Below, piece after piece: positions 43,999 through 55,763 of a DNA stretch of 64,000 nt. Below the pieces are notes generated by a model. It did not search any database and was not told the DNA's origin. It saw nothing but the letters and a program-made list of their open reading frames with translations. Position numbers and translations under genes: made by a program. The stretch comes from Escherichia coli. GTDB taxonomy: Bacteria; Pseudomonadota; Gammaproteobacteria; Enterobacterales; Enterobacteriaceae. Within the stretch, counting starts at the first letter, position 1. Each line of letters opens with the position of its first letter. The DNA is taken from NCBI RefSeq assembly GCF_045037415.1, contig NZ_CP173438.1; one strand, 5' to 3'.

Positions 43999-44074
<76 letters not shown>

Positions 44075-44127
44075 GTTTAAAAGGCATCGGCGTCAGCGGA
44101 TGTCTGGCTGAAAGGCCTGAAGAATTT

Positions 44128-44201
44128 GGCGCGTTAACAAAGCGGTTATGTAGCGGATTGCAAATCCGTCTAGTCCGGTTCGACTCCGGAACGCGCCTCC
44201 A
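44128..44201 (+). tRNA. cysT: tRNA-Cys (anticodon GCA)
   Basis: GGCGCGTTAACAAAGCGGTTATGTAGCGGATTGCAAATCCGTCTAGTCCGGTTCGACTCCGGAACGCGCCTCCA. Confidence 0.95.
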
Positions 44202-44213
44202 CTTTTTTCCCGA

Positions 44214-44300
44214 GCCCGGATGGTGGAATCGGTAGACACAAGGGATTTAAAATCCCTCGGCGTTCGCGCTGTGCGGGTTCAAGTCCCGCTCCGGGTACCA
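44214..44300 (+). tRNA. leuZ: tRNA-Leu (anticodon TAA), long variable arm
   Basis: GCCCGGATGGTGGAATCGGTAGACACAAGGGATTTAAAATCCCTCGGCGTTCGCGCTGTGCGGGTTCAAGTCCCGCTCCGGGTACCA. Confidence 0.95.
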
Positions 44301-44343
44301 TGGGAAAGATAAGAATAAAATCAAAGCAATAAGCAGTGTCGTG

Positions 44344-44368
44344 AAACCACCTTCGGGTGGTTTTTTTG
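44344..44368 (+). terminator. Rho-independent terminator after the tRNA cluster
   Basis: AACCACC-TTCG-GGTGGTT hairpin followed by a T-run. Confidence 0.8.
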
Positions 44369-45679: not shown

Positions 45680-45869
45680 GGTCTTTCCTCATTATGTAGC
45701 TTATTGCGTCATCTGCCTTCTGGCAGGCACGGGCAATATCAGACTCGGTCAAAGTCTGTTTCCTGACGCTGGCCGACAGTCGACCAATTTTGATATCAAA
45801 TGCGGAGAGCAGAGTTGCTCCCGGTTGCCATCGCAGCATTGTGATCCTCCGGTGTCTGGTGAATCGCAA
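45615..45869 (-). CDS. Hypothetical small prophage protein (uncertain; overlaps the xis-like ORF in another frame)
   Basis: 84-aa ORF only; no recognisable domain. Confidence 0.25.
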   Translation of the reverse strand: MRFTRHRRITMLRWQPGATLLSAFDIKIGRLSASVRKQTLTESDIARACQKADDAISYIMRKDHEKRSRHNHQRRNGRADGKPT

Positions 45870-48883: not shown

Positions 48884-49204
48884 TTAGTAGGGGAGCTCAT
48901 CGGTATCTGGCGTGTATTCGATGCAAAGTAACTGCTGGATTTTGTCATCGATAGCAGCAATACGCTGTTGGGCGTCGGCGACTGTTTTCTGTTTTTGTTC
49001 ACGCAGTTGCTCGACCTGTAAACCGATGATGTCGATTGGCTCGGGCTGGTTAACGGTAATTTCAATTTCGCGGCTTTCCAGAAGGATGTACCTGTCTGGA
49101 AAATTTTTTGACATATCAACAGTCGCAACAAGCAGCTTTTCGTGGCTGAAAGTTGAAGTTGCATAATGAATAAAGAGTGTTACTGGGATGGTGCGCGCTT
49201 CCAT
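48884..49204 (-). CDS. Hypothetical prophage protein
   Basis: 106-aa ORF with perfect RBS CCAAGGAG before the ATG. Confidence 0.55.
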   Translation of the reverse strand: MEARTIPVTLFIHYATSTFSHEKLLVATVDMSKNFPDRYILLESREIEITVNQPEPIDIIGLQVEQLREQKQKTVADAQQRIAAIDDKIQQLLCIEYTPDTDELPY

Positions 49205-49209
49205 AGCGA

Positions 49210-50214
49210 CTCCTTGGTAATGTATACTCAGAGCCGATCAGCGAATATTGATCAGCTTCCATAGCGTCAGTGTCGTTGGTCTTTCCTCATCACAAGTTTG
49301 GTCACTTGTGATAAATCCGAATGGTTTGGTCGCCGTTCGGGGTAACTGGCCCGCCTTGTGCGGGTCTTTTGCTATCTAAAGGGTGCCGGTTACGTTTCCG
49401 GCGTCGTTATGTTTCCATTACGACCGTACAGGGCTGGTCAGGCCCGGGCTGGTCTTTCCTGTTTTGAGCTGGTCAGGCTCATGGTCAACGCTGGTCAGGC
49501 GTGGTACTTCCTCCGGTCTTTCCCTGGTGTCACGCTGCGGGTTTGGCCTCTCCTGTTGGGGACTCAGGCACAGCGATAAAACCTGGCTGTGTGAAAAAAT
49601 GGCCCATCGTGCGGACTGGGCAAAGACTAAACACAGCAAATTGATGATGGGCGCCCGGAATCGAACCGGGTAACGGGCAGGGAGTTCCCGTTAAACACCT
49701 GTTCACCACAACCGGGAGCGCACTCCGCCATTTCAAAATTTAACGACAAAGCTCAAAGTTGAGTCGATGAAGTGCGCTCTCGTGTTGTAGCCAGGACTCT
49801 TCCCTGGTGGTCACACCGTATCGCCTTGATGGTGAATCAATCGCTCATACCTGGCTGTGGCTTGCACATTCCGGCTACCTGCTATGGAGACAACGCGTTA
49901 AGGCTCCGCTTCCATCCAGACCGCTTCGACACATGTGCCATATGCCGGTGAAGTCTTTCCCTCTGTCACCGTGTTGGCGCCGACGCGCAAAATTTGGTGC
50001 CGTCTTTCCGGCTGTCAGAACGTGTTTCTGAACAACTGCCGCTGGGTAAGCGTTGTTGATGAAAGTGACTTTACAATTTGTATTTGTAATGGTCAATGTG
50101 TTTTTAAAAAATAATTTGTAGTTAGGGGCAAAAAAATATTCACTGTGTAAAGGTGTTTTTGTGTTAGGGGAAAGTTGCATGCCAGCAGCGGCTGGCCTGG
50201 AAATTTGAACTGAA
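49210..50214. repeat. About 1-kb prophage noncoding region rich in short direct/inverted repeats (GCTGGTCAGGC and GGTCTTTCC families)
   Basis: No convincing ORF on either strand; GCTGGTCAGGC at 49433, 49468, 49491; TCTTTCCCTGGTG-like units near 49516, 49797, 49953. Confidence 0.6.
50071..50125. promoter_or_regulatory. Operator-like repeats downstream of the repressor gene (OL-like)
   Basis: TTACAATTTGTATTTGTAAT and ATAATTTGTAGTTA, related to the repeats in the cI/cro intergenic region. Confidence 0.4.
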
Positions 50215-50629
50215 CTATTTTGTCTGGTTTTTGGCTTCAAGTAGTTCTTTTAGCAGTAGATCGAAGTGCTCTCTTTTTTCTTTTAGCTCATTGATTAATT
50301 TATTTTTTTCGCTCTCAGGCAGTCCTCTGAATAGTTGCAGTAGAGCCTGTTCTTGCGGGGTTAGTTCTTGATTGTAATTACCCGGGTGTAGTGTGGATTC
50401 ATCCAAATATTCCCCTTCATTCATGAAGAAAAAATGAACAGGGTATCCGGTCACTTTTGCTAGCTTGTCTAATTTATCTTTTCTTGGAGTTACCCCATTA
50501 CACCATGCCTGAACTGATTGAGCCGTAACCCCAATATGGCGAGCTAACTCAGATTGAGAACCAGCCTAAGTCTTTTAGAATCCGTTGTAGTCGGCTAGCA
50601 AAAGCCATGTTTTTCGTTTTTGTGTTCAT
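50215..50629 (-). pseudogene. cI-like XRE-family HTH repressor, disrupted by a +1 frameshift
   Basis: N-terminal stub MNTKTKNMAFASRLQRILKDLGW then stop; the HTH continues SQSELARHIGVTAQSVQAWCNGVTPRKDKL... in the next frame; deleting one T in TGGTTCTC near 50558-50562 restores a single ORF. Confidence 0.7.
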
Positions 50630-51493: not shown

Positions 51494-51532
51494 GCGCCTG
51501 ACCAGCGTTTAACTTATACCGAGGAAAGACCG

Positions 51533-55539: not shown

Positions 55540-55763
55540 ATTGACTTAGAAAAAGTCCGGGGCTATAGTTTCCGCGCAGCCGCAAAATCGGTTGCCGGGA
55601 TTGGCGTCCCGGATATCTAAGTGACGCATAGCCGCGTTAGCGGTTTTTTTATGTGTTAGGCACGGCCACATTCGCATTATGGTGGGCTGTGTGGGGGCTT
55701 CTGTGGAAGCGCCGGGTTCACTTAGCCGGTTACGCCAACCCTGCACAGCTCACCACCAGATGA

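Follow-up and report, generated by a model that had tools for sequence, protein, structure and literature searches.

The question raised by the locus studied here is why a hairpin that looks like the T arm of a tRNA stands in a noncoding region of an Escherichia coli prophage. The locus lies in a stretch of 64,000 nucleotides (nt) of E. coli DNA (contig NZ_CP173438.1 of assembly GCF_045037415.1), which is called the window throughout, and an earlier note on this DNA had drawn attention to a canonical T stem and T loop, followed by an acceptor-like tail CGCCCA, on the minus strand, and had proposed a relic of an ancestral attachment site or a tRNA-like RNA element. We find that the motif belongs to a noncoding RNA module, structured and conserved, which the prophage carries in its early leader, and that it represents neither a tRNA gene or pseudogene nor a relic of an attachment (att) site. 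With somewhat better than even confidence, we favour the view that the hairpin is the third helix (P3) of a leader junction of about 63 nt, which would serve as a structural and processing module beside a small RNA resembling RprA.

The minus-strand 23-mer CCCGGTTCGATTCCGGGCGCCCA at 49648-49670 is present in a single copy in the window, and 0.00 copies were expected from 100 dinucleotide-preserving shuffles, even when 3 mismatches were allowed. For the T-loop core GGTTCGANTCC (11 nt), 2 copies were found in 64 kb versus 0.07 expected, one belonging to a genuine tRNA-Cys at 44177 and the other to the motif site. The motif consists of a stem of 5 base pairs (bp; CCCGG/CCGGG) and a 7-nt loop UUCGAUU, with CGCCCA following directly, and CCCGG-UUCGAUU-CCGGG thereby shows the 5-bp stem, the 7-nt UUCRANY loop and the G53-C61 pair of T arms. 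The T-stem, T-loop and tail of the earlier note are thus present as described and, judged by the shuffles, not a product of chance. We also agree that no full cloverleaf surrounds them, as neither ARAGORN under default settings nor the Rfam tRNA model reports anything there, and that the region is noncoding, RefSeq annotating no gene in it.

A tRNA or tRNA pseudogene was rejected by several tests. In the window, default ARAGORN recognized only tRNA-Gly, tRNA-Cys and tRNA-Leu at 43999-44300, and the Rfam tRNA model (RF00005) gave no match at E<=10 in the 931-nt noncoding region. In the same 931-nt search, the tRNA-Sec model reached 19.3 bits versus a gathering score of 47 (E=0.58), its alignment imposing a pseudo-cloverleaf on 49646-49726. 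When ARAGORN thresholds were relaxed to 80%, a 'tRNA-Val' was called at 49646-49723; however, 37 calls were made in the window versus 32-39 in shuffled windows, and therefore this call carries no weight. Comparison with the 3' halves of 838 tRNAs from the fetched loci gave a divided result, as the 17-nt T arm is identical in 2 of them whereas the tail is matched by none: for T arm plus tail, even the best of the 838 tRNAs has at least 5 mismatches, all of them in the tail. The name 'acceptor-like' for CGCCCA is not borne out either. It pairs instead with UGUGGUG, about 55 nt upstream, and the helix formed with UG(U)GGUG has 6 bp and a bulge and is not the 7-bp helix of an acceptor. A D arm, an anticodon arm of normal geometry or a CCA were not found in the junction, in which the hairpin preceding the T-arm-like one has a 7-bp stem and a 9-nt loop. 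What the motif shares with tRNAs is a canonical T stem-loop contiguous with a closing helix; it differs from them in the missing D arm, normal anticodon arm, CCA and significant score.

The att relic was likewise rejected. The prophage of about 42.7 kb, whose early region is lambdoid and which encodes a Q antiterminator and a contractile tail, resides between leuZ and yecA, beside glyW-cysT-leuZ, and is inserted downstream of an intact leuZ and the 3'ETS-leuZ terminator. At 44301-44368 (plus strand) the 3'ETS-leuZ small-RNA sponge and its terminator are intact and the integrase gene starts about 60 nt beyond; the phage therefore integrated beyond the terminator of the tRNA operon rather than within leuZ. 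The T arm and acceptor of leuZ (GCGGGTTCAAGTCCCGCTCCGGGTACCA) are unrelated to the motif, which holds an internal position in the leader with no integrase or direct repeat nearby. A real tRNA was found at the equivalent place in none of 134 related loci, and no tRNA gene combining the arm of the motif with its upstream context was returned by a pattern scan of GTDB genome contigs. Together with the 838 tRNA 3' ends, these observations leave the attachment-site proposal unsupported. The earlier note had accepted that a tRNA origin would fall if neither a tRNA-like score nor a match to a tRNA 3' end was obtained, and this is essentially the outcome. Its second suggestion, a tRNA-like RNA element, holds in the limited sense of an RNA hairpin that is kept by compensatory changes and abuts a closing helix, not in the sense of a tRNA.

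In the predicted structure, the junction is composed of a closing helix P1, a 7-bp hairpin P2 and the T-arm-like hairpin P3 (all leader features are given for the minus strand). The 5' strand of P1, UGUGGUG (49704-49710), pairs with the 3' strand CGCCCA (49648-49653). P2 (49671-49693) is formed by UAACGGG, the loop AACUCCCUG and CCCGUUA and appears in all folds, and P3 (49654-49670; CCCGG, loop UUCGAUU, CCGGG) follows P2 with no gap and is contiguous with the 3' strand of P1. In minimum-free-energy folds P2 and P3 are robust and the closing helix adopts a slightly different register, GGUG/CGCC plus UGGUG/CAUCA being the minimum-free-energy fold.

Pattern scans of IMG/VR, GTDB genomes and metagenomes recovered lineages with the T-loop hairpin, which we call V1 (the window type), V2 (L065, L126, L270) and V3 (L130, L135, L125 and L263, the latter from E. 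whittamii). The pattern GGTGAAN{20,50}GGTTCGATTCC returned mostly real phage tRNAs, the scan of GTDB genome contigs yielded only E. whittamii and chance matches, and the metagenome scan added, among the matches listed, chance matches and only V1 and V2 copies; the patterns were too loose or too narrow, and the covariation reported here rests on three lineages. In V1, V2 and V3 the motif stands at the same internal leader position within the same layout of promoter, leader and first open reading frame (ORF), which in V2 and V3 reads promoter, leader and then AGGAGTCGCT-ATG. When compared to V2, the junction block of the window is 78% identical and the RprA-like block 79%, versus 28% for the unalignable middle of the leader and 51% for the downstream part, and therefore the junction is an island of conservation. 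In the 5 distinct variants compared, every cell of P2 and P3 is paired (100%); four pairs have changed on both sides in a compensatory manner and the loop UUCGAUU stays the same, whereas pairing falls to 37-51% in slid controls. In P2, 3 of the 7 pairs are changed on both sides in V2 (GAGCUGG/CCAGCUU), every cell remaining paired, and in P3 a C-G pair is replaced by U-A in V2, again with every cell paired and with an identical loop. P1 is paired in 87% of cells across the 5 variants, a U.G pair becoming U-A in V2. This pattern shows that selection acting on the RNA maintains P2 and P3.

In V3 the sequence from the 3' strand of P1 onward is replaced (CGCUACACC...), which makes the CGCCCA point a module boundary. 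V3 keeps the junction and lacks the RprA-like module and its terminator, so that junction and RprA-like module are separable units. A different exchange is found in phage vB_SmeS_BUCT708 (L002, OM816834.1), which is 82% identical over the whole leader length: P2 and P3 are replaced by a shorter, unrelated hairpin without a T-loop, and the flanks and the RprA-like module are kept, the latter with compensatory changes in the terminator stem. This phage was deposited as a Stenotrophomonas phage; its early region is 71-82% identical to the prophage leader and contains enterobacterial RprA-like sequence, which makes the recorded host look doubtful. Immediately 5' of the junction, a long-range helix (49714-49781) is predicted from the complementarity of GAGAGCGCACU (49771-49781) and AGUGCGCUCCC (49714-49724), which match at 10 of 11 positions and would enclose an insert of about 46 nt. 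Both strands are conserved in BUCT708, V2 and V3, and in other phage contigs the same pair is a simple hairpin downstream of RprA-like modules. The junction lies between the GGAGUGCGCUCCC helix and the RprA-like module.

These comparisons bear on two alternatives. That the motif is a chance resemblance in a GC-rich hairpin, or else a protein-coding or DNA-level element, might be argued from the mechanically predicted ORFs which overlap it (49383-49673 on the plus and 49530-49736 on the minus strand) and from the isolated fold, which is not unusually stable. However, only about 0.07 copies of the 11-nt core alone and 0.00 of the 23-mer would be expected by chance, no RefSeq gene is annotated, and a frame-breaking 1-nt indel in the P2 loop between lineages together with the module swap in V3 weakens a coding reading, whereas a strand-specific terminator and the compensatory changes point to RNA. 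We regard such an explanation as very improbable. A decaying, functionless remnant of a tRNA gene or of a tRNA-derived att site, left in the early region of the phage, would account for the perfect T-arm sequence, and phage early operons can indeed carry tRNA genes beside homologous noncoding blocks; in P1, the homologue of window positions 49776-49881 is located 93 nt downstream of tRNA-Ile in the ban operon. However, compensatory substitutions keep P2 and P3 within a block that is an island of conservation, and the hairpin appears to stand where the STnc100 core has a conserved hairpin (see below). Neither do the lack of a significant tRNA score, the tail unmatched in 838 tRNA acceptors, the 134 related loci without a tRNA at the equivalent site, the insertion behind an intact leuZ and 3'ETS, and the lack of a nearby integrase or direct repeat agree with this idea. 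As far as 'functionless' is concerned, the covariation largely refutes it, and overall we consider a remnant improbable.

Downstream of P1, a single-stranded linker of 8 nt (UCAUCAAU, 49640-49647) runs into AUUUGCUG, which aligns with the RNase E maturation site of RprA (GA|AUU); 8 nt 3' of the CGCCCA tail the leader reads UUGCUGUGUUUAGUCUUUGCCCAGUCCGCACGAUGGGCCAUUUUUU. The module that follows, at 49594-49639, resembles the 3' part of RprA and comprises a seed UUGCUGUGUUUAGUCUUU (49622-49639), a terminator hairpin GCCCAGUCCGCACGAUGGGC (49602-49621) and a U-run (49594-49599), and its end was terminator-like in a sequence scan. In blastn, positions 49590-49639 were 86% identical to the annotated E. 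coli rprA over 50 nt, and the conserved RprA 3' domain AUUGCUGUGUGUAGUCUUUGCC is present with its terminator. The Rfam model of RprA (RF00034) gave the only notable Rfam match in the region, 37.4 bits (E=0.01 locally), which lies below the gathering threshold of 70 for full-length RprA; the alignment is near perfect over the 3' 50 nt and its 5' part is aligned only nominally. A cut by RNase E at GA|AUU matures RprA to a 3' species of about 50 nt (Chao et al. 2017, PMC5222698), and since the shared stretch starts at this very cut (PMC5222698), the module is a copy of the mature RprA species. By analogy, RNase E may cleave the prophage RNA at the linker.

The likeness to RprA at 49590-49639 extends over the AUUGCUGUGUGUAGUCUUUGCCC stretch, the terminator hairpin and the U-tail. 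In contrast, the 5' 60% of RprA, with its stem-loops and the region that pairs with rpoS, csgD and hdeD, is absent from the window, where the tRNA-like junction stands instead, and one base of the seed is U in place of G. Also, the module resides in a prophage leader behind the leftward early promoter (PL) and not behind an Rcs-controlled promoter of its own, the sole promoter-like site for it being PL, 350 nt upstream. No mention of an RprA-like module in prophages was found in the papers that could be searched, and RefSeq and GenBank phage records leave it unannotated; blastn of the module, a short query, against GenBank phages gave few matches within the E-value limit, none of them informatively annotated.

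The seed GUCUUU(G)CC is complementary to an over-represented motif, GGAAAGAC, of which there are 11 copies versus 1.5 expected, always on the transcribed strand of prophage operons, with sites at 45681, 48856, 49279, 49452, 49516, 49953 and 50002 on the minus and at 51523, 53943 and 58321 on the plus strand. The form GAGGAAAGACC(N)ATG is the ribosome-binding site of four prophage genes, and five GGAAAGAC copies in the PL leader are without a start codon. A role of the seed against ribosome-binding sites was considered and rejected, as duplex energies over 57 prophage gene starts were no better than those of 300 shuffled seeds (p about 0.5) and the GGAAAGAC motif does not covary with seed variants.

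How widespread are the two parts of this element? The RprA-like module was found in at least 120 viral contigs of IMG/VR (L003-L122; pattern TTGCTGTGTNTAGTCTTNGCCC) where it follows, among the matches listed, at least 9 unrelated upstream contexts, which include PL leaders only about 110 nt long, multi-hairpin cores of the STnc100-like kind and ORF 3' ends preceded by CCCCUGAAUCAUCCA. Some modules form part of short units of about 150 nt, from PL to terminator, that resemble stand-alone small RNAs. At least 42 distinct terminator hairpins with covarying distal stems occur in related phage contigs; the invariance of the seed in this set follows from the search pattern and is not independent evidence. 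All 9 of 9 representative loci gave sub-threshold RprA matches of 41-62 bits.

One of these loci, L032, also passes the model of STnc100 (RF02076) with 48.9 bits versus a gathering score of 47. STnc100 is a prophage-borne small RNA related to PasD (bioRxiv 10.64898/2026.05.13.724894; PMC12370729). L032 and the window share a 5' flank of 26 nt, GAGUGCGCUUCCGGUUGUGGUGAAU, which can be written GAGUGCGCU(U/C)CCGGUUGUGGUGAA, as well as the RprA-like 3' end, and in L032 the closing helix and terminal hairpin are arranged as in the window junction. In the STnc100 consensus the closing helix is gcaUGGUG...CACCAugC and the last hairpin, CCGGG-AGGCA-CCCGG, abuts its 3' strand; similarly, closing helices GUGGUG/C(G/A)CCAC occur in the minimum-free-energy folds of subfamilies S4, S5 and S9. 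Tested for such a closing helix, the window fits L032 and the consensus in layout and 5' flank, but P1 is ambiguous in register and only 87% of its cells pair. Since the layouts of the consensus, of L032 and of S4, S5 and S9 agree, the T-arm-like hairpin probably holds the terminal-hairpin position of an STnc100-type core. On this comparison the junction appears to be a reduced form of the core of STnc100-type prophage small RNAs, which has multiple hairpins; the entire element would be an STnc100-type core fused to an RprA-type 3' module, and the T-loop a minority variant of the STnc100-type terminal loop.

With STnc100/PasD of Salmonella and pathogenic E. coli, the window element has in common that it is prophage-borne, that a closing helix UGGUG(AA)...C(A/G)CCA, putative in the window, encloses hairpins and that the last 5-bp GC hairpin abuts the 3' strand. 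The two differ in the interior, about four hairpins (~110 nt) in STnc100 versus two (~50 nt) in the window, in the terminal loop, AGGCA versus UUCGAUU, and in location, downstream of stx or late genes (PMC12370729) versus the PL leader. Identity with the Pas small RNAs of enteropathogenic E. coli was also considered and rejected; published fragments and probes of PasA, PasB and PasD are unrelated, and only the link between PasD and STnc100 is relevant.

Taken as a working model, these features suggest the following course of events. On infection or induction, PL transcripts would either end at the RprA-like terminator or extend past it. Once folded, the junction would act in cis as a stable structural and processing module, which may insulate the downstream seed from mispairing, block RNase E scanning in 5'-to-3' direction and present the linker, single-stranded and AU-rich, to RNase E as a cleavage site. 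Such cleavage, or termination at the RprA-like terminator, would yield an RprA-like small RNA, of about 50 nt in the case of the cleavage product, which presumably binds Hfq by analogy with RprA. As for the T-loop, its most probable role is that of a stable motif of tertiary structure and not that of a part of a decoding tRNA. There is precedent in StxS, a small RNA that results from early termination and RNase E processing of a phage leader (PMC7547250). StxS (PMC7547250) and 3'ETS-leuZ (PMC5222698) resemble the arrangement proposed here by analogy, in that a structured upstream RNA and an AU-rich RNase E site precede a small RNA made of seed plus terminator, but neither has a sequence relationship to the window RNA.

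Several observations weigh against this model. V3 has no RprA-like module, and therefore the junction cannot serve solely for maturing that small RNA; BUCT708-type phages have no T-loop, and therefore the T-loop is dispensable for the general function of the module. All double changes come from V2 and in effect amount to one evolutionary comparison. The register of the closing helix is ambiguous, the fold energy of the isolated junction is ordinary (z = -0.8), and the window gave no match to Rfam STnc100 at E<=10 in the 931-nt search. Finally, transcript ends, processing and Hfq binding at the locus are all inferred.

A different use of the same structure is conceivable. The junction might be a functional tRNA mimic: with P3 stacked on P1 it would look like the minihelix of acceptor stem and T arm, and enzymes that act on tRNA would be drawn to it, namely RNase P to its 5' side, RNase E to the 3' trailer and possibly TruB or TrmA to the T-loop, so that the leader is cut and the RprA-like RNA released. 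This would parallel leuZ and 3'ETS-leuZ or the immunity RNAs C4 (P1/P7) and CI (P4) that are matured by RNase P. Processing of C4 and CI by RNase P was reportedly described in 1995 by Hartmann and coworkers and by Forti and coworkers. The T stem-loop is indeed indistinguishable from real T arms (G53-C61, UUCGAUU, a 17-mer found in 2 tRNAs), P3 directly continues the closing helix just as a T arm continues the acceptor stem, the V2 T-loop is unchanged although its stem has changed, and the tRNA-Sec alignment, at 19.3 bits, covers a full pseudo-cloverleaf. In the C4 RNA of the same prophage, closing helix and two hairpins are found as well, the second hairpin (CCGG-GUUCACUUAG-CCGG) being T-arm-like, and RNase E is known to free 3'ETS-leuZ from a tRNA precursor (PMC5222698). 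On the other hand, the closing helix has just 6 bp, is bulged and of ambiguous register, a D arm and an NCCA-like 3' end are lacking and the scores are at noise level. Hairpins without a T-loop occupy the same position elsewhere (AGGCA in STnc100, S7 and S9, others in S4, S6 and BUCT708), seven unchanged loop bases at about 22% lineage divergence are expected by chance in about 15% of cases, and V3 has the junction without the small-RNA module. We therefore consider a tRNA mimic possible but rather unlikely.

The comparison with C4 (RF01695) of P1/P7 and CI of P4 deserves a closer look. Like the window junction, they combine a closing helix with two hairpins, the second of which is T-arm-like, and their place is likewise an immunity or leader region of a phage; 6 kb away, the same prophage contains a bona fide C4. 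In contrast, the closing helix in the window is much shorter and no a/b target repeats were identified. The C4 model gave no match at the motif; the real C4 and its a1b1 target are located at 55563-55760. This segment (plus strand) contains, in tandem, isrK (80.4 bits, gathering 50), a C4 antisense RNA (75.2 bits, gathering 45) and a c4-a1b1 target element (52.9 bits, gathering 46.7), and constitutes an antisense control unit of the P1/P7 immI type upstream of a gene with an ORF6N domain, a possible antirepressor.

A bolder version holds that the junction is a working acceptor/T-arm mimic that borrows RNase P, RNase E and possibly TruB or TrmA and, on induction, carves a copy of mature RprA out of the leader, thereby tapping the host RprA regulon. 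We think this unlikely. If true, mature RprA would belong to a large, mobile family of 3' small-RNA modules carried by phages, and the possibility would arise that the core gene rprA was itself assembled from a phage module.

Another cis-acting role is suggested by the position of the junction just upstream of an intrinsic terminator in the PL leader. It could be a put-like antitermination RNA that allows read-through of the terminator 50 nt downstream in a phage without an N-like protein. This phage has Q and no N; the product of its first PL ORF, 106 amino acids long, is acidic, belongs to phrog_2479 and lacks an arginine-rich motif, for which reasons it was rejected as an N-like protein. 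With about 63 nt and two stem-loops the junction also resembles put of HK022 (PMC9378689), a two-stem-loop RNA, about 65-70 nt long, which likewise belongs to the early leader of an N-less lambdoid phage. However, sequence similarity to HK022 putL or putR is lacking, as is a second copy in the rightward (PR) operon, which would correspond to the twin of put, and the distance of about 350 nt from the promoter is unlike that of putL. Moreover, B-type relatives have the terminator without the junction whereas V3 has the junction without the terminator. A put-like function is thus quite unlikely.

Our preferred reading, a structural and processing module in the leader, is consistent with the organization of the surrounding early region. 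A PL-like sigma-70 promoter (TTGACC, 17-nt spacer, TAAAGT; 50068-50096, minus strand) was detected by a promoter scan; it adjoins a cI-like repressor gene (50215-50607, minus strand; RefSeq annotation), beyond which a cro-like gene follows, and overlaps an operator-looking inverted repeat TTACAAATACAAATTGTAA. The untranslated leader of the leftward early operon extends over about 850 nt (49205-50060, minus strand) without any RefSeq gene, and the motif is located about 350-410 nt from the putative transcription start. The promoter block differs between relatives, the leader downstream of it being conserved. The first leftward ORF starts at 49204, and the operon encodes the 106-residue protein, an exonuclease of 738 residues, Gp157, a DUF4224 protein and the integrase. 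The window sequence is 100% identical to that of E. coli strain SK1144 and many others. The 751-nt noncoding region occurs in 472 of 5426 complete E. coli genomes, always on the chromosome and unannotated, and the element is carried by about 8% of complete genomes (447-472 of 5426), isolates of sequence type 131 (ST131) among them.

Other parts of the leader showed features of their own. Its start CAACAACGCUUACCCAGCGGCAGUUGUUCAGAAACACGUUCUGACAGCC (49986-50044, minus strand) is conserved in all relatives and is reminiscent of a nut-like site, with a boxA-like CGCUUA ahead of a hairpin, although the first ORF is not N-like. A block of about 170 nt (49776-49947, minus strand) is conserved, at 70-77%, in epsilon15-like podoviruses (SPN1S, phiV10, TL-2011b), mEp390, phages of Klebsiella and Enterobacter, and P1/P7; in P1/P7 the homologue is flanked by tRNA-Ile and ban, and next to the block an RNase III site is annotated in the epsilon15 record. 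In the distal leader, a GC-rich hairpin GACCCGCACAAGGCGGGCC (49348-49366) is nearly invariant in BUCT708 and V3, and has a terminator-like U-run on the plus strand only, antisense to the leader.

On its own, the T-arm-like hairpin would be a minor curiosity; the portable phage module that resembles mature RprA is more informative. The most conserved part of a core enterobacterial small RNA is carried by many temperate phages as a portable unit of seed plus terminator, and these phages fuse it to interchangeable 5' domains such as STnc100-like cores, short PL leaders or the 3' ends of ORFs. If expressed, the module could supply the Hfq network with an RprA look-alike when the prophage is induced. 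The system is thus a tractable case for studying the modular assembly of small RNAs, and also for asking whether tRNA enzymes read T-loop hairpins in transcripts that are not tRNAs.

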